Positions 8,306 through 43,334 of a stretch of 64,000 nt of DNA are shown here, piece by piece. Origin of the DNA: Candidatus Bathyarchaeia archaeon (GTDB lineage: Archaea > Thermoproteota > Bathyarchaeia > Bathyarchaeales > Bathycorpusculaceae); contig JBEKKX010000006.1 of NCBI GenBank assembly GCA_050010515.1, positions 11,316 to 75,315 of the forward strand, written 5' to 3'. Below the pieces are notes generated by a model, which ran no database searches, was not told the DNA's origin, and saw only the letters and a list, made by a program, of their open reading frames with translations. A program made the position numbers and the translations under genes. Position 1 is the stretch's first letter, and the number at the start of each line of letters is the position of its first letter.

Positions 8306-8312
8306 TCTCCGT

Positions 8313-10006: not shown

Positions 10007-10016
10007 GAATTCACCC

Positions 10017-17296: not shown

Positions 17297-17545
17297 TCAC
17301 CCGCGATTCCCCTTTTTTTATGGATGATTCGCGATACTGAAATCGTTAGGTTTAGAAAGAAATGATGTTAGGCATAGATGTTCTGCTGTTTGTTTGGGAA
17401 CCAGCATCCTCAGATATGTTATTCCGTAAATGGCTCTTTCTTTTTTAAAGAAAAAATATTTTGGTCAAATGTATCTAAAAGTTAAAAGCCTAAAATCGAT
17501 AGGCATTTAGGTTTGAAAATAAGTATTAATGGAAACGGTTGATGC

Positions 17546-18832
17546 TTGATGGCTTTAGTAAAAATAAGCAAAATCTTAGAAGGATGCTGTCTAGACCAGA
17601 AAGTAACTATACGCGGCTGGGTTTACCGTAAACGTGAAGGAAAAGAACTTGTTTTCCTAGTAATCCGCGATTCAACGGGAGTAATCCAATGTACAGTTAA
17701 AAAAACTAGTCCCTGCTGGAACGAAGCACTACGCTTAACAATTGAATCTTCACTCACGCTTGAAGGCACCGCCAAACAGGACAAGCGTGCCCCAGGCGGA
17801 TACGAGATAAGCATAGAAAACTTGACGATTATCGGTTTAGCAGAAACCTTTCCAATTGCGAAAGATAAAAGCGAAGAATTCATCCGTGACATGCGGCACC
17901 TCTGGCTTCGCAGCCGAAAAATGAATTTAGTCATGAAGGTTCGCGCTGACGTGTTAGAAGCAACACGCGAATACTTCAAAAGCCAAGATTACACAGAGGT
18001 TTCGCCGCCGATGTTTATTTCCGCGGCAGTTGAAGGCGGCTCAACTCTTTTCGGCTTAAAATATTTTGATCAAGACCTTTACCTGACGCAGAGTTCTCAG
18101 CTTTATCTGGAAATTTTAATCTATTCTTTAGAAAATGTTTATTGCATCGCTCCCTCGTTTCGGGCTGAAAAAAGCAGGACAATTAGGCATTTAACTGAGT
18201 ACTGGCACATTGAAGGCGAATGGCCGTTTGCGGATATGAATGATTTAATGAAGTTTGAAGAAGGCTTAATGATGCATGTTTGCCAAAGCATCGGCGACAA
18301 ATGTCAAAAAGAATTTGCAGAGTTAGGCGCTGACATATCAAAGTTGAAAGCAGTAAAGACTCCGTTTCCAAGGATAACTTATGAAGAAGCAATCAATAGA
18401 CTTAAAGTTAAAAATCAAGCGTTAAATTGGGGTGTTGATTTAGGTTACGAGGACGAGAAGGTTTTAGCTGAAGATTTCGGCAAACCCTTCTTCGTTTATG
18501 ATTACCCTACAGCGATTAAGGCGTTTTATTGCAAGACGTACCCTGACCATCCTGAAGTTGCAATGTCGGTTGATATGATGGTTCCACGGATAGGCGAAAT
18601 CAGCACAGGCGGAGCAAGAGAAGAAGACAAGGACATACTTATTCAACGTATGAAAGAGCAGGGCTTGAAACCTGAAGATTACGAATGGTACCTTGACCTA
18701 CGGCGCTACGGCACCGTGCCCCATGTTGGCTTCGGCATGGGACTAGAGCGATTGATAACTTGGATGCTTGACCTAGACAACATCATCGACGCTATTCCAT
18801 TTCCGAGAACAACCCGCAGGTTCTACCCATAA
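17546..18832 (+). CDS. asnS: asparagine--tRNA ligase
   Basis: N-terminal OB fold, RHLWLRS, YLTQSSQLYLE, FRAEKSRTIRHLTEYW, GFGMGLER. Confidence 0.93.
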   Translation: MMALVKISKILEGCCLDQKVTIRGWVYRKREGKELVFLVIRDSTGVIQCTVKKTSPCWNEALRLTIESSLTLEGTAKQDKRAPGGYEISIENLTIIGLAETFPIAKDKSEEFIRDMRHLWLRSRKMNLVMKVRADVLEATREYFKSQDYTEVSPPMFISAAVEGGSTLFGLKYFDQDLYLTQSSQLYLEILIYSLENVYCIAPSFRAEKSRTIRHLTEYWHIEGEWPFADMNDLMKFEEGLMMHVCQSIGDKCQKEFAELGADISKLKAVKTPFPRITYEEAINRLKVKNQALNWGVDLGYEDEKVLAEDFGKPFFVYDYPTAIKAFYCKTYPDHPEVAMSVDMMVPRIGEISTGGAREEDKDILIQRMKEQGLKPEDYEWYLDLRRYGTVPHVGFGMGLERLITWMLDLDNIIDAIPFPRTTRRFYP

Positions 18833-18843
18833 TATTTTTTTGT

Positions 18844-19554
18844 TTACGGGTAACCCGTAAAATACTCCAGTTTTAACTGTGCTTTCTGCAAGCCGATGCT
18901 TACGACAAGTGTCTTCATCGCTGCAACCATCGGCGGCGGTCCACAAACATAAAACACGTTTTCCATGTAATCAGGCAATTCCTTCTTAATCATATCTGCA
19001 GTGATTACGCCGGTTGCACCTTTCCATTGACTGGTTGCTTCGTTAACGATAAAAACGACTTTTAAATTCTTGTTTTCTTCTTGCATTTTCTCAAGTTCTT
19101 GTTTGAATGCTATATCATTTTGCGTGCGGCAACCATAGAAGAGCGTAATTTTCGAGTTCAAGCGTTTGTCTGCGGCGTATTTGCATATGCTCACAAAGGG
19201 GGTTATTCCTATACCTCCTGCAAGCAACGCGATTTTGGGATACTCACCCTCAAAAGTGAATTGTCCATATGGCGCGTCTATTCTTGCCCAGTCGCCTACT
19301 TTAACGGCTTTTAAAGCCATTGAATATTCGTGATCAGTCAGTTTTTTAGTAAATTCAAAGTGTTCTTTTTCTGTTGGGCTGCTGCTAAAACTAAAATGGT
19401 GAGTTAACTCTTTGTCGCCCTGTTTTATAGTTGTGAAAAAGTATTGCCCCGGCTTGTAAGCTAATTCAGGCGGTCTGGAAAACCTGTAACTGGTTACATC
19501 AGAAGTTCTAGGTATAATTTCTTTGATTTTCGTTTCAAGCTTCATAAAAATCAT
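18844..19554 (-). CDS. FAD/NAD(P)-binding oxidoreductase (ferredoxin-NADP reductase family)
   Basis: YKPGQY, AGGIGITP, YVCGPPPM. Confidence 0.9.
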   Translation of the reverse strand: MIFMKLETKIKEIIPRTSDVTSYRFSRPPELAYKPGQYFFTTIKQGDKELTHHFSFSSSPTEKEHFEFTKKLTDHEYSMALKAVKVGDWARIDAPYGQFTFEGEYPKIALLAGGIGITPFVSICKYAADKRLNSKITLFYGCRTQNDIAFKQELEKMQEENKNLKVVFIVNEATSQWKGATGVITADMIKKELPDYMENVFYVCGPPPMVAAMKTLVVSIGLQKAQLKLEYFTGYP

Positions 19555-19833
19555 GTCGCTATTTAGAATGTGCGGATTCTAGTATAATTATTAGATTACA
19601 ATAAACTTTGCGGCTAACTCGTAAGGCAATATATCAATCTAAACATGGTTAAGCAAAGAAAAGATAACTAAACACTTTAAGAAAAAAGGGTTGGAATGGG
19701 GCAGACAACGGAAAAATTGCTATTCTCGTTGTGCAGATGAAGCTATAAAAACGCTTGAATCTTTAGTCTTAGAAATTGGCAAATATAGGCATCAAGAAAG
19801 AAAAATGTATGAAATCCCCCGAAAAGCTTTAAA

Positions 19834-20490
19834 ATGAAACTGCAGAATTCAAGGGTTAATACAGCGAACTTGGGGAAAACACTAAAAATGAGTGACGATC
19901 TGGTAACGAAATTGGCGAATCCAGCACCGCTAGGACTTTTAGGCTTTGGCGTAACTACTGTTCTACTTAACTTGGTTAACGCAGGGGCTTTTCCTCTGGA
20001 CACAATGATTTTAGCTATGGGCATAGCTTACGGAGGATTAGCACAGGTTATTGTTGGAATAATGGAGTTCAAAAAAGGCAACACTTTCGGTACTGTAGCT
20101 TTCATGTCCTATGGCTTGTTCTGGTGGAGTCTCGTGATGCTTTTGGTTTTACCGAAGCTTTCGTTCCTAAGTGGATTCAGTGCTCCTTCTGCGGCTTCAA
20201 TGGCGGCATATTTCATAATGTGGGGAATCTTTACCTTCGCCATGTTCTTTGGTACATTGAAGGCTAATCGCGCTTTGCAGTTCGTATTCGGGAGCTTAAC
20301 CATACTATTCTTCATGTTAACAATAAGAGAGTTAACTAACAACCCCACTCTGTTTGGATCAGTAACGTTCAACACAATCACTGGCATTGAAGGCGTCATA
20401 TGCGGCTTAAGCGCAGTATATCTTGGCGTAGCTGAAATCTTAAATGAAGCCAACCATAAAACTGTCTTACCAATTTACCCTACAAGCTAA
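19834..20490 (+). CDS. satP: acetate uptake transporter (GPR1/FUN34/YaaH family)
   Basis: [13 protein letters not shown] signature, NTFGTVAF; true start probably the ATG at 19888. Confidence 0.9.
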
Positions 20491-20533
20491 AAAATAACTA
20501 AAATAACTAATTCCTTTTTTATTTTTCAATAAA

Positions 20534-22552
20534 ATGACTGAAAAACTTATATTCTTTAGAGTTTACCCTTCCCAGCAATTTAGGTTGAGTGAAATGTCAG
20601 AAGATAGTTTACCATTTGACGAGAAGTTTTGTCCAAGTATTGCAAAATTTTCTAATGGAGAAAAACGAAAGCAAGAATGGGAGAAATCAATAAAGAATCC
20701 GCAGGAATATTGGGTGGAAAAAGCAAAAGCCATCGATTGGTTTAAGCCATTCAGCAAGGTCCTTGATGATTCTAACCCGCCGTTTTACAAGTGGTTCCCT
20801 GATGGAGAACTAAACATTTCCTACAACGCCCTAGACAGGCACGTGAAAAGTAACCGTAAAAACAAGCTTGCCTACATTTGGGAAGGCGAAATGGGAGAAG
20901 TAAAAACTTACAGTTACTATCAACTTTACCGAGAAGTAAACAAACTTGCAAAAGTACTAAAAGAATTCGGCATCAAAAAAGGCGACCGCGTCGCAGTTTT
21001 CCTCCCCGTTATTCCTGAGTTGCCAATAACTTTGCTTGCAACAACAAGAATCGGTGGAGTCCACACAGTAGTCTTTTCAGGATTTAGTGCTGAAGCATTA
21101 ACCGACAGAGTAAATGACAGTGGAGCAAAAATCCTAGTAACAGCAGACGGTTCCTTCCGAAGAGGAAAATCAATCGCCATTAAAGACAACGCAGACCGCG
21201 GATTACCAAACATGCCTAATATTGAAAAAGTTATTGTTGTAAAACGGACTGGTCAACCTGTTCAGATGAAGGAAGGTAGAGATGTATGGTATCATGATGC
21301 TCTTGCAAACGCAGGCGCAGACGCCTACGTGGAACCAGAAAGCATGAAATCTACAGACCCGCTATTCATCCTTTACACTTCAGGAACTACAGGGAAACCA
21401 AAAGGTGTTCAGCATGGGATAGGCGGATACCTTGTCTGGGCTTATTGGACGCTCAAGTGGGCTTTTAACCCAACTGACGAGGATATTTTTTGGTGTGTTG
21501 CTGACATCGGCTGGATTACCGGGCACACATACAACGTTTATGCACCGTTAAGCCTAGGCGTTACCGCATTCATTTTTGAGGGGACACCTGATTACCCCGC
21601 GCAAGACCGATGGTGGGACATAATTGAAAGACACGGCATAACCATCCTCTACGCTACACCAACCGCCATCAGAATGTTCATGAAATTCGGTGAACAATGG
21701 GTAACAAAACATGACCTAAGCACCCTACGCATTCTAGGCTCAGTAGGCGAACCAATAAATCCTGAAGCGTGGAAATGGTACTACAGCGTCGTTGGCAAAG
21801 AAAAACTCCCAATAATTGACACCTGGTGGCAAACGGAAACTGGCGGATCTATGATTTCCCCCACCTCAGGAATAGAACTCACACCGTTAAAACCTGGCAG
21901 CGCAACGTTCCCAATGCCAGCAGTCAACGCTGACATCTACGATGAGAAGGGACAGCCAGTACAAGCAGGCACTAAAGGTTTTCTAGTAATCAAATCGCCA
22001 TGGCCTGGAATGTTGCAGACAATTTGGAAAGACCCCGATCGATTCAAGCAAACTTACTTTGGCAGGTGGCCGGGAATATACTATTCTGGCGACTATGCTG
22101 TCCGAGACCCTGAAGGCTACTTCTGGCTCCTTGGCAGAGCCGACGAAGTTCTCAAAGTTGCCGGACACCGAATAGGAACAGTAGAGCTTGAAAGTGCATT
22201 GGTTGCGCACCCAGCGGTTTCGGAAGCAGCAGTAATGGGTAAAGAGGACGCAGTGAAAGGCGAAGTTCCAGTGGCATTCGTTGTTCTGAGAAGCGGTTTC
22301 ACGCCGTCAGACGAACTTCGTGCAGAACTCATTAAGCGGATTAGAACCGCAATAGGCCCAATAGCCACTCCAGACGCTGTTATTATAGTTAACAAGCTGC
22401 CAAAGACACGAAGCGGCAAAATCATGCGCAGACTACTTAAAGCAGTACTGTCCGGAGCACCACTCGGCGACACATCAACAATTGAAGACGAAGGCTCAAT
22501 TGAAGACATAAAAGCAACATACGACGAGCTGCGAAAGCATCTAACTAAATAA
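20534..22552 (+). CDS. acs: acetyl-CoA synthetase (AMP-forming)
   Basis: YTSGTTGKPKG, DTWWQTETGG, PKTRSGKIMRR. Confidence 0.95.
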   Translation: MTEKLIFFRVYPSQQFRLSEMSEDSLPFDEKFCPSIAKFSNGEKRKQEWEKSIKNPQEYWVEKAKAIDWFKPFSKVLDDSNPPFYKWFPDGELNISYNALDRHVKSNRKNKLAYIWEGEMGEVKTYSYYQLYREVNKLAKVLKEFGIKKGDRVAVFLPVIPELPITLLATTRIGGVHTVVFSGFSAEALTDRVNDSGAKILVTADGSFRRGKSIAIKDNADRGLPNMPNIEKVIVVKRTGQPVQMKEGRDVWYHDALANAGADAYVEPESMKSTDPLFILYTSGTTGKPKGVQHGIGGYLVWAYWTLKWAFNPTDEDIFWCVADIGWITGHTYNVYAPLSLGVTAFIFEGTPDYPAQDRWWDIIERHGITILYATPTAIRMFMKFGEQWVTKHDLSTLRILGSVGEPINPEAWKWYYSVVGKEKLPIIDTWWQTETGGSMISPTSGIELTPLKPGSATFPMPAVNADIYDEKGQPVQAGTKGFLVIKSPWPGMLQTIWKDPDRFKQTYFGRWPGIYYSGDYAVRDPEGYFWLLGRADEVLKVAGHRIGTVELESALVAHPAVSEAAVMGKEDAVKGEVPVAFVVLRSGFTPSDELRAELIKRIRTAIGPIATPDAVIIVNKLPKTRSGKIMRRLLKAVLSGAPLGDTSTIEDEGSIEDIKATYDELRKHLTK

Positions 22553-22580
22553 TTTCTTTTCTTATTTTTTTTAAAAAAAA
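22553..22580. terminator. T-rich/A-rich tract between convergent acs and dnaJ
   Basis: TTTCTTTTCTTATTTTTTTAAAAAAAA directly after the acs stop. Confidence 0.45.
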
Positions 22581-22628
22581 TCATAAATTATTTTACGTTA
22601 GTGATTACTAATGCCTTTAGATTAACTG

Positions 22629-23735
22629 TTAAAAGTGGAATTTGTGGCTTTTTTGCACTTCAGTGTCGAATTCTTTTGCTAATTCTTCAAGAAGCGTTCG
22701 TTGCTGGAACGTAAGTTTTTCTGGAACTGACATGCCTATGCGTATTAGTATGTCGCCTTTGCCATAAGCCCTGAAATGTGGCATTCCTTTTCCCTTCAAC
22801 GTTATGACTTCGCCTACCTGCGTTCCTGGATGAATCTTGATGGTTGTTGGTCCTTCAAGGGTGGGAACGGCTATTTCAGCGCCTAATGCTGCTTGCGGAT
22901 AAGTGATTATGGCTACGTGCCATAGGTCGTCTCCTTCCCTTATAAATTGCGGGTGCGGCTTAACGTGAACGACGACATAGAGGTCGCCTGGTTCGCCATC
23001 GTCAGACGCCATTTCTCCTTCTCCTCTGAGCCTAAGCTGATTACCTTCATCTATGCCCATTGGAATTTTAACGGTGATTTTACGGCGTATCCTAACCCGC
23101 CCTGTACCATGACAATTACTACATGGCTTTTCAATCAGTTGGCCTTTTCCTTTACATGTTGGGCAAGCAGTCACTTGCACGTACATCCCGAAGCCGCTTT
23201 TGCGCATATTTTGCACTTGACCCGAACCGCCGCACCTTGGGCAAATTTTAACGGAAGTGCCTGGGGCAGCGCCTGAACCCTCGCATACATTGCATTTTTC
23301 AGTTCGTGGGATTTCAATTTCTTTTTCGGCTCCGTTAGCAGCCTCTTCCAAGGTTATTTCAAGGTCATAAGCTAAGTCTTGGCCTATGTTTCTTCTTTCG
23401 CCTCCGAATCCCCCGCCGAAGAAAGTTCGGAAAATGTCCCCGAAACCCATGTCTCTAAAAACAGAGTCAAAGTTGGCACCTCTGAAAATGTCTTCTGAAC
23501 TGTATCTTTGGTCAAAACCTGAATGGCCAAGGGTATCGTATTGTTGTCGTTTTTGGTCGTCGGAGAGAACAGCATAAGCTTCAGAGATTTCTTTGAATCT
23601 TTCTTCTGCTCCAGGAGACTTGTTTCGGTCTGGATGGAATTGCATTGCCAGTTTTCTGTAAGCGTCTTTGATTTCGTCCTTTGATGCGTTGCGTTGTACG
23701 CCTAGAACTTCGTAGTAGTCTCGTTTTTCAGCCAT
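22629..23735 (-). CDS. dnaJ: chaperone DnaJ
   Basis: J domain with HPD, G/F region, four CxxCxGxG repeats. Confidence 0.96.
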
Positions 23736-23767
23736 TAGATTTTACCGCTAAATCAGCATCTATTATT

Positions 23768-25693
23768 TTATTTGACTTTGTAATCTTCTGAATCAACCAC
23801 TCTCTCTTGACCTGATTCTTCGGGACCTGGACCTTCAGGACCGCCGCTTGGGGGTGGTTGGGGTCCTGTTCCTGCTTCTGGTCCTTGGCCTGGTTGTTGC
23901 TGTCCCTTCTGTTTTGCGTATTCTGCTGCTGCTTGCTGGTAAACCTTCGTTCCGACATCCTGCAGTACCTTCTGGAGTGCGTCGGATTTTGTTTTCACCA
24001 GTACCATGTCATTGCTTGCTAGAGCGTTTTTGAGTTCTGTTACTGCCGCGTCGATTTTTCCTATTTCTTCCTGTGTGATTTTGCCTGCAAGGTCTGTCTT
24101 TGTTCGTTCCGCCGTGTAGACTAGGCTGTCAGCGTTGTTGCGCAGTTCAGCTTCTTCCCTTTTCTTTTTGTCTTGCTCTGCGTATTGGTCGGCGTCTTTG
24201 ATTAAACGTTCCTTTTCTTCTTTAGATAGCTTGGTGGATGCGGTTATGCGTATTTTTGATTCTTTTCCTGTGCCTAAGTCTTTGGCAGTTACGTTCATTA
24301 TACCGTTGGCGTCGATGTCGAATGTCACTTCTATCTGTGGGACGCCTCGTGGTGCAGGCGGCAAATCTACGAGGTTAAACATGCCAAGTGAAACGTTGTC
24401 CCCTGCCATTGCACGTTCGCCTTGGAGCACGTGGATGGTGACTGCTGTCTGGAAGTCCGCTGCTGTCGTGAAGATTTGGCTTCTCTTAGTTGGAATGGTC
24501 GTGTTCTTTTCCATTACTTTAGTGTGTACGCCGCCCATGGTTTCTACACCGAGCGACAATGGTGTAACGTCAAGTAAAAGTAGGTCTGTGACTTCGCCTG
24601 TTATGACTGCTGCTTGGATGGCTGCTCCTATTGCAACGCATTCCATGGGGTCAAGTCCACGTTCGGGCGCTTTGCCTAAGATTTGCTCAACAAACCTTTG
24701 AACAAGTGGCATTCTGGTCATTCCGCCGATTAGAATGATTTTGTCGATTCCTTGCGGCGTCAGTTTTGCGTCTTCAAGAGCTTTCAGAAGGGTAGGTTGT
24801 GTTCGCTGCACGATTGGTTGCGCTAAAGATTCCAGTTTAGTTCGCGTTAATGTTAGGTGTAGGTGTTTTGGTCCTGAAGCGTCTGCTGTTAAAAATGGCA
24901 GGTCGATGTCGGTGCTCATCAGCGCTGAAAGCTCAATTTTGGCTTTTTCCGCGGCTTCTTTAAGCCTAGGCATTGCCATTCTGTCGCCTGAGACATCTAT
25001 GCCTGTTTGACGTTTGAACTCGCCTAAAATGTAGTCCATGACTGCTTTGTCAACGTCTGTTCCGCCGAGTTGGGTGTCACCGCTTGTGCTGAGCACTTGG
25101 AAGACTCCTTTGCCAAAATCCATTACTGTGACGTCGTGTGTTCCGCCGCCGAAGCTGAACACGAGAATTTTCATTTCTTGCTGTACCTTGTCTATGCCGT
25201 ATGCGAGGCATGCAGCTGTGGGTTCGTTGACTATTCGCATGACTTGGAAGCCTGCAATTTCTCCTGCATCTTTGGTTGCTTGGCGTTGGTTGTCATTAAA
25301 GTGTGCTGGAACAGTAATGACTGCTTTGCGCATAGTGCCGCCAAGGTAGGTTTCTGCGTCCTTCTTTATTTTTTGCAGTATGAATGCTGAGATTTGCTGG
25401 GGACTGTACTCTTTTCCGTAAACGTTGACTTTGTAGTCAGTGCCCATTTTGCGTTTTATTTCAAAAATTGTTCCTTCTGGGTTGGTGGCTGCTTGGCGTT
25501 TCGCTGGTTCACCTACCAAGAGTTGTCCGTCTTTTGTGAAGGCAACAACTGATGGGAACATTTTTCCCGCCATTGTAGGGCCTTCTGCGCTTGGGATAAC
25601 TGTTGCGTGTCCGCCTTCATATATGGCGGCTGCTGAATTGGTTGTTCCCAAATCTATTCCTAATACTTTTTCACTTGTTTTTTGATTACTCAT
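23768..25693 (-). CDS. dnaK: chaperone DnaK (Hsp70)
   Basis: [39 protein letters not shown]. Confidence 0.97.
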
Positions 25694-26239
25694 TTACTTT
25701 TTTTCCTCCATTTGGTTACTTTGATTGTTTTTTGATGGTTTGACTGCTACTTTGACGATGGTGGGTCGAATTACTTTGCCCTTCATCATGTAGCCTTTTC
25801 TTATTTCCTCAATCACGGTGCCGTCTTCAACATCGTCTTGCTCTACAGCGGCAATAGCGTTATGACGTGTGGGGTCAAAAGCTTTGCCCTCTGGGCTTTC
25901 TATTGGAGTGACACCTTCTTGCTCAAGAACCTTTCTGAGCTTTTTCAGCGTCATTTCCACGCCTTCTAGCAAGGATTCGGGCGATGTTGAGATTTCGCCG
26001 TTTTTAACCGCTAACTCCAGCTCATCCACAACATCCAGTAGTTGGATGACTAAGCGTTCGGTGCAGTAATTCTTGGTCTGCTCCGCTTCACGGTCAAACC
26101 GTTTCTTAAAGTTATCAAGGTCAGCCTGCAAATACTTAAGCCTAGTCAAATAATCTTCTGCACGTTTCCGCTCACAATCCAGAAGCTGCTCTAGCTGGTC
26201 AACAGACTTCTCTTCTTGCTCTTTTTGTGCATCAACCAT
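25694..26239 (-). CDS. grpE: nucleotide exchange factor GrpE
   Basis: QADLDNFKKR, FDPTRHNA, KGYMMKGKVIRP; adjacent to dnaK. Confidence 0.95.
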   Translation of the reverse strand: MVDAQKEQEEKSVDQLEQLLDCERKRAEDYLTRLKYLQADLDNFKKRFDREAEQTKNYCTERLVIQLLDVVDELELAVKNGEISTSPESLLEGVEMTLKKLRKVLEQEGVTPIESPEGKAFDPTRHNAIAAVEQDDVEDGTVIEEIRKGYMMKGKVIRPTIVKVAVKPSKNNQSNQMEEKK

Positions 26240-26376
26240 TTTACGCTAGCTCCTTGTGTTTAAAAGCAATCTAACAATCAAACAAAAAAATTTTTCGCCT
26301 TAAAAGGCTTTACCTTTAAAATGTGCAAAGTTAAGAAAAAACATCAAAATTTGTAATAAGTAATTGGTTTTATCGA

Positions 26377-26660
26377 CTAGTGTTTCAACTGTTTCTTAAC
26401 TGCTTCTTCGGCTGCTTTGACTGCTTCGGGTAGTTTGTCGCATTTTGTTCCTCCGCCTTGTGCAAAGTTGGGTCTTCCGCCGCCTCCGCCGCCAAAAATC
26501 GGTGCAACCTCTTTCACTATTTGGTTTGCGTTTACGCCTTTTTGCACCGCGTTTTCTCCAGCCATAACCATGAGTCTGCAGGTTTTTCCGTCAGAACCAT
26601 AAAACAGCGTTACGGTTGCTGGGTTGCGCTTGATAATCTCCGCGGGGTTTTCACCATGGG
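26377..26660 (-). pseudogene. alaS: orphan 3' fragment of alanyl-tRNA synthetase (C-Ala/DHHA1 domain)
   Basis: AEIIKRNPATVTLFYGSDGKTCRLMVMAGENAVQKGVNANQIVKEVAPIFGGGGGGRPNFAQGGGTK...KKQLKH parallels the C-terminus of 31000-33843; no catalytic domain; frame breaks near MVKT (~26645). Confidence 0.85.
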
Positions 26661-26753
26661 CGCCTATTCGGCAAGTTTTCTTTTGATTACCATATTTATC
26701 ATAAATTTATCATTAGAATTTGCTTAACTAAAAACAAGAAATTTCTTTAATGA

Positions 26754-29700
26754 TTATGTCGGATTTTCTTTATTCGCGATATTAATTAGCGCAATCTTTG
26801 CTGCCATTCGAACACGGCTTTCATAATTGTTATGAGAATCAGCCCTGTATTTAGAGAATTTTGGTAAAGGTGATTTTATTATATTTGTTAGAAGCAATAT
26901 CGCTGCGCTATCTCCGATTATGTCCAAAGACTCGATGATCTCGAGCCTATAATCCAAAGCCTCGAACCATTCCTCTTCCTTCGGAGGAATAAAATCTTCA
27001 TAAAGCCTTATCAACCTGTCTGTGGCCGATCTACTTGCAATTTTGCCCAACGTAATTACCGTCTCTTTCCAAAGCTCTGTCGGATTTCCGAAAGTTGGTT
27101 GGTTCATCCAATTTAAGCCCTTGGCAACTTGCCTTTTATCTTCAAAAATCTGCATTAAGCTCGTGATTGATTTAGCATTTCCTATTTCCCCGAGTGCCCG
27201 CACAATCGATATTTTTGCATTATAATCCGATTCTGTTGAAAGCAGGTTAAGCAAAGGTGTCACTCCAACTCCACTCTTAAGTTTACCTATGGAATCTATT
27301 GCGGATATTCTGACTTGCGGGTCGGAATCAGTCAAGAAAGAGATTAACGGTTTCATAACTTGATTTCCTCCAATTTCACCTAGCGCGTCAGCCACAGCCT
27401 GCCGTATTTTCGGTTGGCCGCTTTTCATAGGTACTATAAGCGTTTCAACACTATTTTGATCACCGATTTTTCCAAGGGCGATTATCGAATGAATCCGAGT
27501 TTTTTCATCGCTTGTTTTTACAAAAGAAGTTAGTAAATCGACCGCGCTCTTCGTTCTCATGCGGCCAAGTCCATCAATAGCCAGCAATCTAAGGTCGGGA
27601 TTCTTCTCTTGTTCTCTTGATATTTGTAGAAGAATATTTTCTGCTTCTCCCCCACCAATCATTTCAATAGCAAGCATAATCTCTTTTTCATATCGTCCTT
27701 CATTGCTTTTCATGAATTCGACCAAAGGTTCAATTCCCGAATCTATTCTTAACTCGCCAATAGCTTCGATTATACAATTCATGTGAGTAGATGTGCCCTC
27801 TCTCAAAACTTGCACTAGTAAAGGAAGTGCTGCTTCAACTCCTAAGGCTTGGAAGGCATCAAATATGTGTCGTCTGTTTTCTGTTTTCTTATTACAAAGC
27901 AGGTCGACCAGCGCGGGTATCGCTTTGTTACTACCAATCATTCCCAACGCAATTATAGCATTTTTTGCAACAATTGTATCGGTCTCGTTCAATAACCCAA
28001 TAAGTGGTGTTAATATGTCATTTCCGCCAATTCTACCCAGTGCTTCAATTGCTCGACTTCTAACTTGTTTATCGTCATCAGATAGCAACCCAAGAAGCGG
28101 TTTGATGGCTGCCCTATTCTGGGTTATGCCTAGTGCCTCTGAGGCGCTAATCCGAATCCACTTATTTGGACTTTTTAGTAGTTCAATAAGCGAAATAGTT
28201 ACCTTGTCATTCCAATTCTTCTGGAGATTTTCACTTGTAAAAAGTATGTTTCCTATAGATTCTGTGGCTGATGTTACAACCATTTCGTCGGTATCTTGAA
28301 GGGCGGTTAGCAGGAATTCAAGTGATTCTTCAGTACATTTTTTTCCTAATATCTCAATTACAGATTTTTTAGTATAAGCATCAGCGTTATCTGCCATTTT
28401 CAAGAGTTTTTTTGTTATGTTTTCGTTTTTTATCTTTGACAACGCTCTTACAATTGCATAACGCAAAGACAAGTCTTGTTTGTCCTTAAGTGCATTGATC
28501 AAGCCTTCGACTGCTTCATTACTTCCTACTTCTGATAAGGAATTAATTGCTTCGTTCCATACATCAGAATCTTCGTCATCTAGCGCTTTTATCAAGTACT
28601 CAGTAACTCTATTATCACCAAGTTCTCCTAGCGTCTTTATCGCAAAGACCTTAAAGTTGCCTTTAATCGCTAAATTGCCGATTATACCTATACTGGTTTC
28701 AGGCCTTTTGAGTTTACGTGATAAATTTATTACAAACGTTTCCCAGGTAGGTTCTTGGGACTTAAGGATCTCGTTTATCATGGATATATGAATATCCTGT
28801 TTTTTTCCTTCCATCATCATTACAAGATACTGAATGGTTCCCCTCATAATTCTAAATTTTTTCGCTTCATCGATAAAATTGTTCAAATCATTGATTATTT
28901 CTGCTTGTTCTTTTTTTTGCCATTGGTAATCAGATCCGTAAATTATCCATCTTGCCATGACATATTCGAAAAATGCCTCGTAAGCAAAGCCTACTACTCT
29001 ATCCCCTTCCCAATTAAGATAGGTAATAAGATTTTCGCTAAGTATCTTACTCAACACTGTTTCTAAATCAGCTGTTGTATCACCAAGAAGAGCTATTATT
29101 TCTGTTTTTGGCAGTTCGCTTTTTTGTTTCTTCTTAAGTTCGGCCACGAATTTGTACATTTGTTCTGTGGCTTTACTCTCTTTACCTGTATGTTCGAGCT
29201 TCCTTAACCAATATTGATCGAATATTTCAATTCTTCGAACGTCACTAGGAAGATTTTGACCTTCAAATCCTTCGGCAAGAAATCTCAACATTAGCGGATG
29301 CAAACAGATAGCCCTGAGTTCCTTTACAAGAGTTCCCTTGAGTTGATATAACCGCTTATATAATGTCCATGCTTCTTTGAACTCTTTTGCATTAAACTCA
29401 TTGAAGCGCAGGTCGTTTTTCATGAAAACGCGGCCTTTTTTTGAGTAAAGGCGATCCAGGAATCCTTCATTATCCTTCAGGAAGAATTCCCAATCCATGT
29501 CTCGACAGCTAATATAGAATTTGATTCTGTTACCGATATTATTTTGAACTATATCTGCCAAGTCTCTTTTGATCGCCTGTGGGTTAGGGGATTCGTTAAT
29601 TGCGTCTAAAAATACTATCAAATCAAAGTTTTTTTCGTTTAGGGCTTCATTCAAATTTGGCATTAACTGATCAAGATTAGGGTAATCCTGCGCGTTAAGA

Positions 29701-30938
29701 GCATCAATCAAATGTTGTTCAAGTGACCCGTTGATATACATGCTGTTTAGGAATAATACTGGTCGACTATCCATGAGCTTTTCAGATAAATGACAGAGAA
29801 GGTTAGTCTTTCCAATTCCGGCTTCGCCAACAACAACACATGCGTTTTTTTCTTGCTGATCTAGAAATTCGTCGAACTCTTTTTCTATCTCTGCGCGTTT
29901 GACGTACAGATTTGGAATGTACTTTTTGCTTCGATCAATTGCACTTCCTTTAAGGTCTTGCATTTGATTTATAACCTGTTCTTTGCATGTTTGCAATATC
30001 TTTAGGAATGTTATTTTAGGGTGAATAACAGGAGTTTGTTCGAGTAATGCTCTTGTGTACGCCGAAGCGACAAGTGCAGCGTAGGAATGCCAATCATCAT
30101 TTTTTCTATCATCAGAATAATCGCAAATGCCGCGCACTATTAAGTAGCCTACTTGTTGATCCCACGTGGCTTCAGCAGTACCTGACCCTTCCATTTCAAA
30201 AGCTCTTACCCCAAATTGATCTCTTAACTGATCTCGTTTCCGAGCATTTTTAAGAAGCGTGTTCCCAGATGCGACTGAGCCAATAAATACTCGAGGCTGC
30301 CCTGCAATTCTTTTAGGGTCTTCAGGATGATTAATGAAGATTTCAGGATTATTTGAACTAACTAGGATATCGGTTTTTTCTGAAGGACGCTCAATCTTTA
30401 GCTTTTTCATACCTTGCTTAATGAATTTAAGCCATGGTCGGTCTCCCTCAATTTCCAATGCTTCCATACGTCGAACTGAAGCAAGTAAATGCGAACTTGG
30501 GGGTCTTGGCAAGGGTCTAACAATGATATTTTCTGTTTCTTCCTTAACAAAATCATATTGTATTACGCCATTCTGACCAGATACTACTATGTCTCCTAAA
30601 CGAACATGCTCAGTGGTTTTTTCGGGGTTCGGTGCTCCTCCAGCGATACCTACCATTATAATTGAGTTAATGTTAGGGAAGTCTTCTAATAACATTGTAG
30701 TCTTACTAGCCGCAATGTTATTTCCCATTCCGGCAAGAAATAAAACTACAATATGCGTTCCTCCGTTTAATGCGTGTATTTGTCCTATACAATAAGTTCG
30801 TGGTGACCGAGCGCCTGTTGAATAAGATTTTGTTTTGTTCATCATTGCTTTTACAGCGGCATACTCCTCAGGCAATGCAGTAAGTATACCAATTGAAGCC
30901 TGCTTGCACTCCGGTGCGCTATCCACATTGCTTGACAT
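26754..30938 (-). CDS. NLR-like defence protein: PNP/MTA-SAH nucleosidase + STAND/NACHT-like NTPase + HEAT repeats
   Basis: GILTALPEEY, MVGIAGG, RLGDIVV, FEMEGSG, RGICDYSD (PNP_UDP_1); GEAGIGKT and LIVFLDAINE (Walker A/B); many AxxALGxIG repeats. Confidence 0.88.
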   Translation of the reverse strand: MSSNVDSAPECKQASIGILTALPEEYAAVKAMMNKTKSYSTGARSPRTYCIGQIHALNGGTHIVVLFLAGMGNNIAASKTTMLLEDFPNINSIIMVGIAGGAPNPEKTTEHVRLGDIVVSGQNGVIQYDFVKEETENIIVRPLPRPPSSHLLASVRRMEALEIEGDRPWLKFIKQGMKKLKIERPSEKTDILVSSNNPEIFINHPEDPKRIAGQPRVFIGSVASGNTLLKNARKRDQLRDQFGVRAFEMEGSGTAEATWDQQVGYLIVRGICDYSDDRKNDDWHSYAALVASAYTRALLEQTPVIHPKITFLKILQTCKEQVINQMQDLKGSAIDRSKKYIPNLYVKRAEIEKEFDEFLDQQEKNACVVVGEAGIGKTNLLCHLSEKLMDSRPVLFLNSMYINGSLEQHLIDALNAQDYPNLDQLMPNLNEALNEKNFDLIVFLDAINESPNPQAIKRDLADIVQNNIGNRIKFYISCRDMDWEFFLKDNEGFLDRLYSKKGRVFMKNDLRFNEFNAKEFKEAWTLYKRLYQLKGTLVKELRAICLHPLMLRFLAEGFEGQNLPSDVRRIEIFDQYWLRKLEHTGKESKATEQMYKFVAELKKKQKSELPKTEIIALLGDTTADLETVLSKILSENLITYLNWEGDRVVGFAYEAFFEYVMARWIIYGSDYQWQKKEQAEIINDLNNFIDEAKKFRIMRGTIQYLVMMMEGKKQDIHISMINEILKSQEPTWETFVINLSRKLKRPETSIGIIGNLAIKGNFKVFAIKTLGELGDNRVTEYLIKALDDEDSDVWNEAINSLSEVGSNEAVEGLINALKDKQDLSLRYAIVRALSKIKNENITKKLLKMADNADAYTKKSVIEILGKKCTEESLEFLLTALQDTDEMVVTSATESIGNILFTSENLQKNWNDKVTISLIELLKSPNKWIRISASEALGITQNRAAIKPLLGLLSDDDKQVRSRAIEALGRIGGNDILTPLIGLLNETDTIVAKNAIIALGMIGSNKAIPALVDLLCNKKTENRRHIFDAFQALGVEAALPLLVQVLREGTSTHMNCIIEAIGELRIDSGIEPLVEFMKSNEGRYEKEIMLAIEMIGGGEAENILLQISREQEKNPDLRLLAIDGLGRMRTKSAVDLLTSFVKTSDEKTRIHSIIALGKIGDQNSVETLIVPMKSGQPKIRQAVADALGEIGGNQVMKPLISFLTDSDPQVRISAIDSIGKLKSGVGVTPLLNLLSTESDYNAKISIVRALGEIGNAKSITSLMQIFEDKRQVAKGLNWMNQPTFGNPTELWKETVITLGKIASRSATDRLIRLYEDFIPPKEEEWFEALDYRLEIIESLDIIGDSAAILLLTNIIKSPLPKFSKYRADSHNNYESRVRMAAKIALINIANKENPT

Positions 30939-30999
30939 GCAACATAGATAAAGATAGGATACCTAAAAAACATGCGCTAATTTTAGATTGCCAGTTTTC

Positions 31000-33843
31000 T
31001 TAGCAAATGCCCAGTTTGTTCAATTGTTTCTTTACTGCGTCTTCTGCTGCATTTACTGCCTCTTTTAGTTTCTCTGGTTTTGTTCCGCCGCCCTGCGCAA
31101 AGTTGGGTCTTCCACCTCCGCCGCCTCCGATAATAGGCGCAACTTGACGGATTACTTCAGCTGCATTGAAGCCTTGGTCCACTGCTAATGATCCAGACAT
31201 AATAACTAGACCGGACGTTTTGTCAGTTTTTCCTCCGAAGACAGTTATTGTGCCTGGATCTTTTTTGATTAATTCACTGGCAAGCTGAATCATTGGTGCT
31301 ACGTCAACGCCAGAAAACTCTCGTCTTATTACTTTACATTCCCCGAGAATCGTTATTCCTTCTGTCGTTTCCGCAATAAAATCTGGTCTCACTTGTTTGC
31401 TTTCTTTTTCAATAACAAAGCTTTCCTTTTGGGCTAGTTCCTTGATTAGCTTGCGTTTCTCAACATTTGCCTCCTTGAGTTCTTTGACGATTTTCTCAGC
31501 CGTCTTATCCAACTTGTTCGCAGGAGCCGTCAAAACTTCTGAAACCTTCCAGAGCAGGCTTTCCTGTTTCTGTACTGCCTTTAGCGCTTCCAGCCCAACT
31601 GCGTAGCCTAAGCGTTCCACGCCGTCCTGTACGCGTTCGGTGTAGACGATTTTTACAAAGCCGACCTCGCCAGTGCTTCCCAGATGTGTTCCAGCGCACG
31701 CTTCAACGTCCCAATCGCCAGTTTTCACCACTCGGATATCTTTGCCAGGTACTGCACCGCCTTGGTAGAGTCTGAAGCCGTAACGTGCTTCCGCCTCGTT
31801 GCGCGGTAGCCAAGTTGTCTCAACCTTCATGTTAGCGCCTATCGCCTGATTAGCCAATATCTCAATTTTATGAACTTCTTCAGTGCTCAGTCTTCGGTAA
31901 TGTGAAATGTCAAGGCGTGAAGTTTCCAAGCCCTTCTGAGTGCCTGATTGCCAAACATGCTCGCCTAAAACCCGTCTTGCAGCACCATTAATTAGGTGCG
32001 TAACCGTATGCGCCTTCATCAAAGCGTAACGTCTGTCCCAGTTGAGAACGCCGTGAACAGTGCTGCCTTCTTTGAACGTTGGCGATGTGCTGAGTTTGTG
32101 CACTATGATTTTACCGATCTTTTGGGTGTCAACCACGTCAAACTTTGAAGCGCCAACTGTTAGCCATCCGTGGTCTGCTGGTTGCCCTCCGCCCTCAGGG
32201 TAAAAGCATGTTCGATCCAACACGACGTACTTGTCGTTGATTATTTTGAGGACTTTAGCGTCGAACTCACGCATATACGTGTCGGCATAGTACAGTTGTT
32301 CTGTTGCTGGCAGTTGCTCAGCCACTTTCTCGAGCGTTTTCTCGGCTTGGGTTTCTTCCTCTTCGACGGGTTTGGTTGCTTGCATGTGTCGTTTAGCGAT
32401 TAACGCGTAAAAGTTCTCCGGAACCTCCACTTGCACGCCTTCTTTTTCAGCTGCTTGCTTAACAATTTCTGGTGGAAGCCCATGCGAATCATACAGTTCT
32501 GTCAGCGTATCCATTGGTAGTTTGCCTGTGCCTTTTGCTTTCAGGTCGCTGGCTATTCGTTTAACCATGCCTTCTCCGCGTTTGAGCGTGTCTTCAAACT
32601 TTTCCTCCTCAACCTTGAGCATTTCAACGATTTCGTTTTGCATTTCTTTGATGTGTGGGAAATCTTTTGACCAATAATCGACCTGCATATCCACGATATC
32701 GTACAGTTTTGCTGGCTCCATGTTGAGGGTTCGCATTAAACGGTAAACCTTGCGGTACAGCAGCCGCGCTAAGTATCCTTCCTGAATGTTCGATGGCACA
32801 ACCCCTTCAGACAGCATGAAGCTTAAGGTTTTAGTGTGGTCAGTTACTGCCCAAGCATTCTCAATCGGAATCAACACTTTATCAAGCGTTTCCATGTCAA
32901 TTCCAGATAACTCTGACACACGTTTTCTAGTGACAAGCCGATTCGCGTTTTTGTCAACGCTAACCAGACCAGAATACTTCGCTACACGAGATAGAAAATC
33001 GTTGTCAACATTGGTTATTCCCGCCATGCTGAGAACTTTATCAAGCAAATTCCCGTAAATCGCTTGGAACAAGCTTGGCACACCCTGACTGATCCAGGTA
33101 AAGCGGTCAATGCCATAGCCCGTGTCAACCGTGCGAATAGGCAACTCGATGAAGTCGTCGCCGACAACCTTGTACTGCATGAAAACCAAAGTGCCAACCT
33201 CTAATCCCCGCACGATGCATTCCACGTCTGGACCAGCGTTGCCGCCGCCAACCCACACATCCTCCTTGTAGACGACCTCCTCAGATTTTATGCCAAGCAC
33301 TTCAGTGGCAAAGCGGTGGTGAAAACGCACTGTTTCATCCTTCCAGTACACTTCCTTGTCAGGATAGTTGAATGCGTGTGCTCCGCCCATCTCGAAAATG
33401 GTTAAGTGCCTGCCAAAAGTTGGTCCAGTATTCGAAATATCCGTCAGCCTAATGCATGGCTGAGAAATCACCAGCGGATTTGCAGGTGGCGGAGAAATCC
33501 CCTCGGTCACGTAGGGCTGGAAGTCAATTATACTTGCATGCGTTAAGTAAATGTCTTTTCGCCATCGGGCAACAACCGGATAAGGTTTAATGCGGGTATG
33601 CCCATTCTTCTCAAAAAACGAAAGAAACGCCTCCCTCATCTCGGAAAGGCTGAAACTTTTCTTTGTGGCTGGATTATTAATGAAAGTGTAGTATCCGCAT
33701 TCGTCGGAGCTGGATTCGCCGCAAGTTTCCTGCTCAGGGTTCTGAGTCCAATAATACTCACCGCATTTTGGACAATGCTTCCTAACGAAACCTTCCTGTT
33801 TAAAGAATGGAAGAGCATAATCTTCTGCCGTAAACTGCTTCAA
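31000..33843 (-). CDS. alaS: alanine--tRNA ligase (archaeal type)
   Basis: SQPCIR, RHLTIFEM, DTGYGIDR, HTVTH editing motif, EACAGTH, GGGGGRPNFAQGGG. Confidence 0.96.
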   Translation of the reverse strand: MKQFTAEDYALPFFKQEGFVRKHCPKCGEYYWTQNPEQETCGESSSDECGYYTFINNPATKKSFSLSEMREAFLSFFEKNGHTRIKPYPVVARWRKDIYLTHASIIDFQPYVTEGISPPPANPLVISQPCIRLTDISNTGPTFGRHLTIFEMGGAHAFNYPDKEVYWKDETVRFHHRFATEVLGIKSEEVVYKEDVWVGGGNAGPDVECIVRGLEVGTLVFMQYKVVGDDFIELPIRTVDTGYGIDRFTWISQGVPSLFQAIYGNLLDKVLSMAGITNVDNDFLSRVAKYSGLVSVDKNANRLVTRKRVSELSGIDMETLDKVLIPIENAWAVTDHTKTLSFMLSEGVVPSNIQEGYLARLLYRKVYRLMRTLNMEPAKLYDIVDMQVDYWSKDFPHIKEMQNEIVEMLKVEEEKFEDTLKRGEGMVKRIASDLKAKGTGKLPMDTLTELYDSHGLPPEIVKQAAEKEGVQVEVPENFYALIAKRHMQATKPVEEEETQAEKTLEKVAEQLPATEQLYYADTYMREFDAKVLKIINDKYVVLDRTCFYPEGGGQPADHGWLTVGASKFDVVDTQKIGKIIVHKLSTSPTFKEGSTVHGVLNWDRRYALMKAHTVTHLINGAARRVLGEHVWQSGTQKGLETSRLDISHYRRLSTEEVHKIEILANQAIGANMKVETTWLPRNEAEARYGFRLYQGGAVPGKDIRVVKTGDWDVEACAGTHLGSTGEVGFVKIVYTERVQDGVERLGYAVGLEALKAVQKQESLLWKVSEVLTAPANKLDKTAEKIVKELKEANVEKRKLIKELAQKESFVIEKESKQVRPDFIAETTEGITILGECKVIRREFSGVDVAPMIQLASELIKKDPGTITVFGGKTDKTSGLVIMSGSLAVDQGFNAAEVIRQVAPIIGGGGGGRPNFAQGGGTKPEKLKEAVNAAEDAVKKQLNKLGIC

Positions 33844-33906
33844 ACTTTTGGCACTCCATTTTCATTGACTGTTCTTTAGCTTTTAATGGGTACTAGATTC
33901 ATGCAT

Positions 33907-35277
33907 TTAAATAATTTCGCCCAACTTTCTAACTAAAGAAGAATGCCAGCCCTCAATCATCGGCTTAGATTCATAAAGCTGTTTTTCCAACCCGTAACGC
34001 CTAAGCGGTTTGGTAAGATGTCTCTGTGACCTTGTCGAAGTCAAGTACAGACCAGCGTTAAGCGTTCTAGGTAGGGCTGATTCTTTCTTGGTTAAGTCGC
34101 CATATTCCGCTCCGCATTTTTCACAGCGGAACCCTTGGTTTTTGCCCATGGACTTCAAGCGTTTACCGCAGCATGGGCAGAGCGGATTCTCAAATACCGT
34201 TTTCGGCGCAAGGTTTAGGATGTTAATTTTTTCAAGGTTAATTGTTAACGGCTTGCTTGACGTTGGCTTATGCACTGCACCATAAACCTCAACGCTGTCG
34301 CCAACGATGAGTTCTCTTGCGATTTTGCGTAGGCTACCAGTTGGTTCGTAAGCGGCGCAATCTACTTCTGCCGAATCATCTTTAATTGAAAAGATAACGT
34401 GGCGCAGGGGAACTATCCGCGGGTTCTGCGAAACAACGCCTTTAGCGATTACTGAACTGTAAGGTTCAATCTTGCTTAATGCTTCAACAGGCTTTAGGTG
34501 GGCATCGGTGCCTTGGTTTGAACGGAAAATAACCCAGCGCTCAACACTTTCAAGCGGCTTAATCATGCCGTAAGCTTTCTTTACTATTTCTGGCGATTCG
34601 CCTCTTATGCCGAAGAGAATTGGGTCTGGACCTCGAGGTGTAATGATTACTCTGCGCTTCTCACAATCAACATTGTTAAAAGTGTAAGGCTGCAATTGCT
34701 GATCCATCTCAAAAATGGATACTTCATCAACTTTCCTCTTTGAACCCCAATTCTGCGGTGCCCTATAAGCAATTAACTCGTACGTGTGGTCGCAGTTGAG
34801 GGTTTCGCCAACGGCTGCCAACGCGCCAATGATGCCTCTGCAAGAGTTAAAGCCTAACGCTTCAGCCCCAAACTTCTTGATTAGCGCCATTGCTTCTTTG
34901 AGTTTTACAATGCTTGTTTCAGTTTTTTTCGCAAAAACCCCCAGTTCCTCGGGGATTTCTTGCCCCTTCAAAAAGACTATTCCAGGGTCTGTGCCTTTCT
35001 CTTTGATGGCTGAGTTTTCTTCCCATAAAGTTATAGCTGACTCTTTTATTTGCTCTTCAAATGTGGCGTCATACTTGAATCTTAGGCAGAGGGCACCGTT
35101 GCCTCTTGTTTTCCATGGCACGTTCGGATTAAGCCTGATCAAGCTTGGATAATCAGTAAATTCAACGTAAAACTTTTCAAGCTCTTCAATAAGTAATGCC
35201 GCAAGATAGGTTGTGCAACCCCCCTTCGTTGAGTCTGTATCGTCCAGCCCAATGTGCATTACCTGTTGCCTATTCAA
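33907..35277 (-). CDS. tiaS: tRNA(Ile2) 2-agmatinylcytidine synthetase
   Basis: GLDDTDSTKGGCTT, RLNPNVPWKTRGNGA, NQGTDAH, zinc ribbon, RHLTKP. Confidence 0.95.
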   Translation of the reverse strand: MNRQQVMHIGLDDTDSTKGGCTTYLAALLIEELEKFYVEFTDYPSLIRLNPNVPWKTRGNGALCLRFKYDATFEEQIKESAITLWEENSAIKEKGTDPGIVFLKGQEIPEELGVFAKKTETSIVKLKEAMALIKKFGAEALGFNSCRGIIGALAAVGETLNCDHTYELIAYRAPQNWGSKRKVDEVSIFEMDQQLQPYTFNNVDCEKRRVIITPRGPDPILFGIRGESPEIVKKAYGMIKPLESVERWVIFRSNQGTDAHLKPVEALSKIEPYSSVIAKGVVSQNPRIVPLRHVIFSIKDDSAEVDCAAYEPTGSLRKIARELIVGDSVEVYGAVHKPTSSKPLTINLEKINILNLAPKTVFENPLCPCCGKRLKSMGKNQGFRCEKCGAEYGDLTKKESALPRTLNAGLYLTSTRSQRHLTKPLRRYGLEKQLYESKPMIEGWHSSLVRKLGEII

Positions 35278-42779: not shown

Positions 42780-43334
42780 TTAAGCTTTGAACCACTTGAA
42801 AATTAAATACTTAATTTTACCTGAAGCCAAATCTGGCACCGCAATAATAAACCGTTTGCGCACTGTGGTAGCTAGCCGTCCAGCTTTAACAATCTCGGTT
42901 GCTGAAATGTCTGAGCCTGTCTTCTTTACCGAGACCATGTAAGGGGCATGTTCAACGCCTGGACCGTACTTGTAAACGGCGAAGTCGCAGCCAAACTTTA
43001 TTCCAGGAGTAACTATTAAGCCGCTGTCCCTAAGGTCGTGGTAAACAGCGTATTTCTCTTCAAATTCATCGTATAACTGTTTAGCTTTTTGCCTTAGCTT
43101 TTTGAGGCTAACCTTGCTCTCGTCTGGATCCTCGTAAATTTCTATTTTCTTGTTCTCGACAAGGTACAAGCCTTCCATCAAATCCAAAATTAGTGGAGCA
43201 TCAAACTCTGGAATTTTAGGTTTAGGAATCCCAACTGGCTTCCCGTAATATCCTGCTTTGTATAGTTGAGAGCCTTCAGTAGAATTCCACACAACTAAGA
43301 AGTTATCGATGAGTTCAACTTTTATTTTTGGCAT
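42780..43334 (-). CDS. endA: tRNA-intron endonuclease, catalytic subunit
   Basis: VYHDLRDSG...GIKFGCDFAVY...H...GRLATTVRK (Y/H/K triad). Confidence 0.93.
   Translation of the reverse strand: MPKIKVELIDNFLVVWNSTEGSQLYKAGYYGKPVGIPKPKIPEFDAPLILDLMEGLYLVENKKIEIYEDPDESKVSLKKLRQKAKQLYDEFEEKYAVYHDLRDSGLIVTPGIKFGCDFAVYKYGPGVEHAPYMVSVKKTGSDISATEIVKAGRLATTVRKRFIIAVPDLASGKIKYLIFKWFKA

Follow-up and report, generated by a model that had tools for sequence, protein, structure and literature searches.

The window, a stretch of 64,000 nucleotides (nt) from contig JBEKKX010000006.1 of a Candidatus Bathyarchaeia archaeon genome (assembly GCA_050010515.1, contig positions 11,316 to 75,315), carries an alaS gene, coding for alanyl-tRNA synthetase (AlaRS), which is followed by a single large gene and then by a second alaS 3' end. 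A sequence-only reading of the window had described an intact alaS, one defence gene and a second, diverged alaS 3' end in front of grpE, and this arrangement is confirmed by the open reading frames (ORFs), Pfam matches and alignment. The features of the locus are given below in the order of transcription; the large gene is called the cargo gene, the detached alaS end the orphan, and "type-1" and "type-2" denote two kinds of alaS 3' end. G488 and G003 are related genomes used for comparison.

33907-35277, minus strand: gene for TiaS, the tRNA-Ile2 agmatidine synthetase (Pfam TiaS_FLD, 3.5e-42, with TiaS_TCKD and Zn_ribbon_TiaS)
31000-33843, minus strand: alaS, the whole chimeric gene, 947 aa (Pfam tRNA-synt_2c, tRNA_SAD and DHHA1)
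31420-33843, minus strand: native part of alaS, codons 1-808
31000-31419, minus strand: foreign type-2 alaS 3' end, codons 809-947 and the stop codon (Pfam DHHA1, 7.7e-16)
30939-30999, minus strand: 61-bp spacer from the new alaS stop codon to the cargo gene, a part of the insert with no counterpart in G488
26754-30938, minus strand: cargo gene, coding for a 1394-aa STAND protein (Pfam, PADLOC and PDB matches)
26658-26753, minus strand: last 96 bp of the insert, AT-rich, up to the right-hand junction, with no counterpart in G488 or G003
26377-26657, minus strand: orphan native alaS 3' end, 93 codons and a stop codon, with a 1-nt deletion near its 5' end
26240-26376, minus strand: native alaS-grpE spacer, 137 bp (144 bp at the equivalent site of G488)
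25694-26239, minus strand: grpE (Pfam GrpE, 4.3e-46; 93% aa identity to G488)

TiaS is the conserved upstream neighbour of alaS, its position being kept in relatives, and grpE heads the downstream block grpE-dnaK-dnaJ. Codons 1-808 of alaS encode the catalytic, tRNA-recognition and editing domains together with the helical part of the C-terminal domain. The stop-to-stop frame of the 3' fragment spans 26377-26706, of which only 26377-26657 is homologous to alaS; of the earlier description of the orphan as about 95 codons with their own stop, the stop holds, while the homologous length is 93 codons. The fragment shares 53 of 86 residues (62%, E = 8e-29) with AlaRS residues 856-941 and by itself matches Pfam DHHA1 at 1.2e-14, so that its similarity to an alaS end is far above chance. 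The C-terminal DHHA1-like domain of AlaRS with its Gly-rich motif is recognizable in both the in-gene end and the orphan. The two have GGGGGGRPNFAQGGGTK in common and diverge strongly upstream of it, as had been noticed from the letters. The source genome is a metagenome bin of 66 contigs, with an estimated completeness of 98.5% and contamination of 2.15%. As the chimeric alaS is the only full-length alaS found in this nearly complete genome, the enzyme must presumably work.

The site as it is without the insert is found in G488, a same-genus genome (68% complete) collinear with the window. Positions 1754-10902 of its locus L080 align to 17482-26657 of the window with 91.9% identity over 9199 nt, and positions 11023-13522 to 31420-33916 with 91.6% identity over 2500 nt; between the two blocks G488 has 120 bp of uninterrupted alaS, while the window has 4762 bp (26658-31419). 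The distance to grpE is 144 bp from the alaS stop codon of G488 and 137 bp from the stop codon of the orphan. An alignment with G003 breaks at the same two points. That the two flanks have diverged equally from G488 indicates that they were inherited vertically and that the middle is the newcomer. In 45-nt windows compared with four type-1 relatives, nucleotide identity is 71-88% before 31420/31419 and 17-37% beyond it, the break lying exactly there, after codon 808 (...KES|F...), in the conserved stretch coding for KLIKELAxKES; the sliding-window comparison proposed earlier thus shows a sharp drop close to the position anticipated for the crossover, near 31430. At the right-hand junction native homology resumes at 26657, the junction itself being without homology, and the 1-nt deletion puts the remnant's first few codons out of frame. 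In gene coordinates the junctions are 120 bp apart, and these 120 bp of native alaS are lost.

The ancestral order, as kept in G488, is TiaS, alaS with a type-1 C-end, about 140 bp, and grpE-dnaK-dnaJ. In the window, the 4762-bp foreign segment replaces 120 bp of alaS in frame with a complete alternative subdomain and its stop codon, owing to which the essential enzyme stayed whole, and the old 93-codon 3' end has been pushed downstream and orphaned before grpE. The insertion that swapped the last subdomain of the synthetase and brought an immune-type gene is real and cleanly delimited.

Which of the two alaS ends is native was decided by comparison with AlaRS proteins taken from 29 relatives (40 of the 41 genomes searched gave a match). 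In 60-residue windows, the AlaRS of the window is 65-100% identical to 19 full-length same-genus proteins from residue 61 to about residue 780, and only 31-48% identical to all 19 in the last two windows, where these relatives resemble one another. Against G003 the identity is 93% over residues 250-800, 24% over 812-855, and 58% over 856-942. The native part of alaS has 91.6% nucleotide identity to G488 and 86.9% to G003. The orphan is 83.5% identical to the end of G003 alaS in amino acids and 83.8% in nucleotides, and 61-83% identical in amino acids to other ends of the genus; a later scan found it up to 90% identical to those of G447 and G454. Separate trees, as suggested by the sequence-only reading, were built for the C-end (last ~95 residues; 46 rows, 94 columns) and for the core (45 rows, 460 columns). 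In the C-end tree the orphan groups with G003, G016 and G020, that is, with type-1 relatives, and the in-gene end falls within a separate clade of 10 type-2 ends (SH-aLRT, the approximate likelihood-ratio support, 99). The approximately unbiased (AU) test rejects the two alaS ends of the window as sisters (p 0.004). A second AU test, with the in-gene end forced into the type-1 set of the genus, gave p 0.03; it was badly posed, type-1 database rows having remained on the other side, and is not relied on.

The uninterrupted site of G488, the profiles of identity, the trees and the AU test together show that the orphan, 26377-26657, is the orthologous native alaS end and that, from codon 809 onward, the C-terminal module of the enzyme is of foreign origin, as had been supposed. 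The ratio of nonsynonymous to synonymous substitution rates (dN/dS) of the orphan against relatives is 0.13-0.22, within the range of intact genes among themselves (0.07-0.30), and its frame is open, which means that most of its divergence accrued under selection and that it was displaced recently relative to species divergence. An ATG inside the orphan opens a 64-aa frame (26571-26377) spanning the Gly-rich motif and the tail; this would be the sole possible product of the remnant, and there is no sign of its expression.

The insert comprises, in this order, alaS codons 809-947 with the stop codon (31000-31419), the 61-bp spacer, the gene for the 1394-aa protein and the 96-bp AT-rich tail. 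The G+C content at third codon positions (GC3) is 0.321 in the type-2 end and 0.339 in the cargo gene, compared with 0.516 in the native part of alaS and 0.44-0.47 in TiaS, grpE, dnaK and the orphan (0.462 in the orphan alone). The low values shared by the type-2 end and the cargo fit their joint arrival. The mean G+C content of the insert, 0.390 (0.389 in the cargo gene), is not extreme, 47 of 297 windows of equal size being as low.

The cargo protein shows, in order, an N-terminal PNP/MTA-nucleosidase-like domain as putative effector, a central STAND NTPase of NACHT/Avs2-like kind and C-terminal repeats. Its N-terminus matches Pfam PNP_UDP_1 (residues 16-282, 9.4e-17) and, over residues 217-295 only, the PN-superfamily effector model of PADLOC (1.4e-20); the solved structures nearest to its N-terminal 320 residues are those of housekeeping methylthioadenosine/S-adenosylhomocysteine nucleosidases (down to 1.9e-7, PDB). 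The NTPase is matched by PADLOC Avs2 (residues 332-706, 7.6e-17), with a GEAGIGKT P-loop read in the translation, and HEAT repeats extend from about residue 750 to the end (Pfam HEAT_2, 1.2e-77; PADLOC HEAT-ARM, 7.9e-39). A preprint on such proteins (bioRxiv 10.1101/2023.01.24.525353) proposes the N-terminal PNP domains of Avs proteins as ATP/dATP-nucleosidase effectors and gives nucleosidase activity of PNP domains as shown for Cap17, DtcC and two eukaryotic examples. The order of PNP_UDP_1, STAND NTPase and C-terminal repeats, with matches to both Avs2 and the PN-superfamily effector, is that of the Avs/NLR proteins with a PNP effector presented there; the cargo differs from them in its archaeal host and its putative HEAT-repeat sensor.

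The only relative of the cargo gene among 331 other genomes of the family lies in G001 (contig C7), on a different contig from alaS. It is 45-66% identical to the cargo and is broken into four frames of 570, 271, 105 and 408 aa. At this locus (L049, 3261-7484 and 7744-12559) it lies directly beside type I restriction-modification genes, one hsdM-like and one hsdR-like as judged from their translations alone, which indicates a defence neighbourhood. A scan of genome contigs returned the same G001 locus, and that of metagenome contigs only a contig 100% identical to the window. In view of the domain matches, the precedent of PNP-Avs proteins and the position of the relative, the cargo resembles an NLR/Avs-like immune gene, in agreement with the earlier description of the gene between the two alaS ends as a defence gene. 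Its HEAT repeats might act as the sensor, the STAND NTPase as the switch, and the N-terminal nucleosidase as the effector, possibly degrading ATP/dATP upon infection.

The locus is probably best read as a foreign 4762-bp insertion bearing an Avs/NLR-like gene; one end would have been anchored by homology and the opposite end joined illegitimately. Homology-anchored illegitimate recombination is its most likely mechanism. DNA from another member of the same family would have entered the cell, carrying the STAND gene directly behind a type-2 alaS; since no donor was found, this arrangement can only be inferred. The donor DNA would have recombined by homology in the conserved stretch coding for ...KLIKELAxKES, and its far end would have been joined illegitimately 120 bp further into the recipient alaS. 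Such a route, known as homology-facilitated illegitimate recombination, would not require a recombinase encoded by the element. The swap is probably tolerated because the part replaced is a self-contained subdomain. In the A. fulgidus enzyme (AfAlaRS), whose C-terminal dimerisation domain is known from PDB 3WQY and 2ZVF, residues 690-883 align with residues 701-919 of the window's AlaRS, and the swapped piece is the counterpart of its globular, DHHA1-like subdomain, where the Gly-rich motif is located. In contrast to that single enzyme, the family to which the window belongs has two deep types of this subdomain, exchanged between lineages.

Several results weigh against the reading preferred here. 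No donor was found, the nearest type-2 ends being 59-68% identical: the best non-self match of the type-2 end is 56% in 401 genomes of the class, 61% (G478) in 120 genomes of the genus and 59% (G507) in 332 genomes of the family, and a set of 5.8 billion proteins gave at best 68% over 73% of the query. At the DNA level, nothing in the genus is closer to the type-2 end with its spacer than G477, with 89% over 125 nt of conserved tail. Scans of the family and of genome and metagenome contigs gave no genome in which alaS is followed by this cargo. A second contig, 100% identical to the window over 18,160 bp, probably stems from the same assembly and is not an independent verification. The trees are the outcome of "quick" searches with SH-aLRT support only, and the NACHT/AAA matches of the cargo are weak (NACHT 1.2e-4, 22.4 bits, against a Pfam cut-off of 26.7). 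Moreover, the 12 database rows included in the trees were picked from 120 matches listed for the type-2-end query, and they therefore over-represent type-2 carriers and are uninformative on the frequency of this type.

Phages and elements such as e14 and phage 21 integrate in the icd gene of E. coli and supply it with a replacement 3' end. A site-specific element of this kind might have targeted the alaS 3' end, its integrase and most of its length being deleted later, so that a single cargo gene remained. As in icd, the incoming 3' copy keeps the target gene intact (the 947-aa ORF has the complete domain set) and the native 3' end is displaced across the insert, which is the typical layout of such integration. 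The patchy occurrence of type-2 ends over at least two genera is also what element-borne sequence might show, and in P0008, a protein discussed below, a type-1 end is joined to the tail of the window exactly at the Gly-rich motif. However, a Pfam scan covering the cargo and 18 ORFs (150 aa or longer, between 12.8 and 50.7 kb, either housekeeping or of unknown role) gave no integrase or transposase domain. Neither an attachment (att) core nor any other short identical repeat was found at the two junctions, and these are not at one point of the gene but 120 bp apart, the native sequence between them being lost. Over the 86 residues that the two ends share, the protein sequence of the replacement is only 62% identical to that of the old end, G478 has a type-2 end with neither cargo nor orphan, and viral contigs gave no relative of the type-2 end in a search that detects close relatives only. 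The integration of the e14/icd kind cited as a precedent in the sequence-only reading is thus unlikely. Apart from the alaS ends themselves (203 nt, 71% identical, in direct orientation, 4.6 kb apart), no repeat flanks the insert on both sides. Two domain copies so placed could also stem from a tandem duplication of the alaS 3' end at the site, after which the copies diverged and the orthologous one remained in the gene; this had been named as what would overturn the sequence-only reading. It has next to no probability, because it is the fragment that resembles the orthologues (83-90%) and not the in-gene end (33-48%), the AU test rejects the copies as sisters, and the empty site of G488 shows the fragment continuous with the gene.

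The direction of the insertion is not given by the sequence alone, and a reverse polarity is conceivable, with the type-2 end and the cargo being old and the type-1 fragment having come later from a relative together with the grpE-dnaK block. Both grpE and dnaK are indeed highly similar to the copies of relatives. Such a history is nevertheless highly improbable, considering that the two flanks are equally diverged from G488 (91.9% and 91.6%), as under vertical inheritance, that all of the closest relatives examined carry type-1 ends, and that GC3 deviates in the cargo and the type-2 end and not in the fragment. There is an equally small chance that the gene is an assembly chimera, in which type-2 alaS reads of a co-occurring strain were joined to the genome in the conserved part of alaS. 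It would be favoured by the origin of the genome from a metagenome bin (66 contigs, 2.15% contamination) and by the location of the left junction within a conserved stretch, but two mis-joins would be needed, of which the one at 26657/26658, without homology, restores exactly the synteny and spacer of G488, and the chimeric gene is the only full-length alaS of a 98.5%-complete genome.

Homology-anchored illegitimate recombination, the mechanism favoured here, has its closest parallel in bacterial polymorphic toxin loci. C-terminal displacement in Rhs/CdiA loci is reportedly associated with the work of Jackson in 2009 and Poole in 2011. For displaced effector ends and orphans in Vibrio type VI secretion system (T6SS) and Rhs loci, homology-facilitated illegitimate recombination is proposed by Kirchberger 2017 (PMC5361080). 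Displacement in Rhs, CdiA and T6SS loci resembles that in the window: the conserved 5' part anchors homology, a second gene comes along with the new 3' end, the previous 3' end persists as an orphan just downstream, and the event takes place without a recombinase. The window has homology at one junction and none at the other, with a loss of 120 bp from the recipient, and 26377-26657 is a promoter-less orphan downstream of both the new end and the passenger. It differs from these loci in that alaS is an essential archaeal housekeeping synthetase gene and not a polymorphic toxin gene, in that its new end keeps the function of the old one, in that the passenger is an immune-type STAND gene and not an immunity gene, and in the presence of one orphan instead of an array.

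Type-2 ends are rare among species representatives. In the genus they were found only in the window's own genome (G000) and in G478, among 104 genomes with a match, and the family search added a third carrier, G507. Of the database proteins with a type-2 end, P0001, P0003, P0004, P0006 and P0009 have cores of the window's genus, while the cores of P0002, P0005 and P0007 group with G507, G540 and G612, in another lineage of the family. On the core tree the 10 type-2 carriers require 9 state changes, at least 6 of them forced by the starred branches, which is no better than with shuffled labels. In 8 pairs composed of a type-2 carrier and a type-1 core neighbour, identity breaks directly after KELAxKES, and identity resumes behind the GGGGGG motif in two pairs, P0007/G540 and P0002/G540; the exchanged unit thus covers approximately residues 810-915. 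The swapped module accordingly exists as two deep types, and these have been exchanged repeatedly between lineages at two conserved borders. As G478 has a type-2 end without cargo and without an orphan, ordinary double crossovers seem to be the usual route, and the one-sided event of the window the exception. In P0008, otherwise a type-1 protein, 24 of the last 25 residues are those of the foreign tail of the window (...NKLGI), its unusual extension included, and the two parts meet exactly at the conserved Gly-rich motif; it may be a second recombinant, formed with the same type of donor. A wider and rather doubtful possibility is that the globular C-terminal subdomain of AlaRS is a mobile cassette, delimited by two conserved motifs and moving repeatedly, in two old types, between species and genera, and that the alaS 3' end, since it can be exchanged harmlessly, is a portable homology arm by which foreign DNA is installed without an integrase; the window would then be the first such event caught before the displaced native end decayed. 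A literature search gave no report of two exchanged types of the AlaRS C-terminal subdomain.

Aminoacyl-tRNA synthetases are often taken as stable, vertically inherited markers. The locus described here is a case, controlled by an empty site, of an essential synthetase whose last subdomain was replaced as a by-product of gene acquisition. It extends C-terminal displacement from bacterial polymorphic toxin loci to a housekeeping gene of an uncultured archaeon, and what is new is its occurrence in an unexpected gene and domain of life, together with a recurrently exchanged AlaRS cassette of two types. It also illustrates one way in which a single defence-type gene may reach a core-gene neighbourhood without the machinery of a mobile element. 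The alaS 3' ends of this group are unsuitable for phylogeny; in the two cassette types nature provides a test of how far the AlaRS C-terminus is modular.

The suggestion that the site is an alaS-targeted defence hotspot was not borne out. None of the 104 genomes of the genus or 336 of the order that gave a match yielded a second orphan, and only 1 of 331 other genomes of the family contains relatives of the cargo, which do not lie beside alaS there. Nor did the survey of genes between alaS and grpE support it: the spacers of 13 relatives, 0.14-2.7 kb long, contain no defence system but PadR-like regulators, a receiver-domain protein and small ORFs of unknown role, the sole PADLOC matches being two PadR-like ORFs, which match a CARF model weakly. 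In 9 other genomes of the genus grpE is not within 10 kb of alaS. The idea that the cargo is locked in place fared no better, since the 203-nt repeat pair, which includes the conserved Gly-rich stretch, would allow a deletion. A deletion between the two alaS ends would give a type-2/type-1 hybrid like the natural ones, so that a clean loss of the cargo is possible in principle.

Two matches to the orphan at an E-value of 1e-10 were obtained, among the 336 genomes of the order with a match, in G000, G472 and G661. Neither of the latter two has a second orphan: in G472 alaS is merely split by a frameshift, and in G661 the two matches come from full-length alaS loci on separate contigs. G365, G169 and G390, checked as candidates on account of short open frames or a double match, also have a frameshift-split alaS. 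In all, alaS is split by frameshifts or stop codons in G004, G012, G020, G022, G365, G390, G169 and G472, many of which are few-contig assemblies, and sequencing errors are a likelier cause than pseudogene formation. The two alaS loci of G661, which belongs to another family, are L084 (contig C79) and L085 (contig C2). They have 66.8% DNA identity, their similarity extends beyond alaS, and in L085 alaS is followed by a large synthetase-like ORF; the pair represents either true paralogues or a mixed bin.

Just upstream of grpE, 10 of the 13 relatives of the genus that were examined have a conserved ORF of about 130 aa beginning with MRRSLTVTPENDKK (e.g., L004:4644-5033, L026:3842-4240 and L073:16756-17169). 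It has no Pfam or PADLOC match and is absent from the window, G003, G016 and G004; in G488 the 144-bp spacer is too short to hold it. Its product may be a regulator of the grpE-dnaK operon. Two more genes for class II aminoacyl-tRNA synthetases are located in the window, at 17546-18832 (Asp/Asn/Lys-type) and 44081-45856 (of class IIa type, its product having an HGTP anticodon domain), and a tRNA-splicing endonuclease is encoded at 42780-43334. This places the insert within a translation-rich core region.

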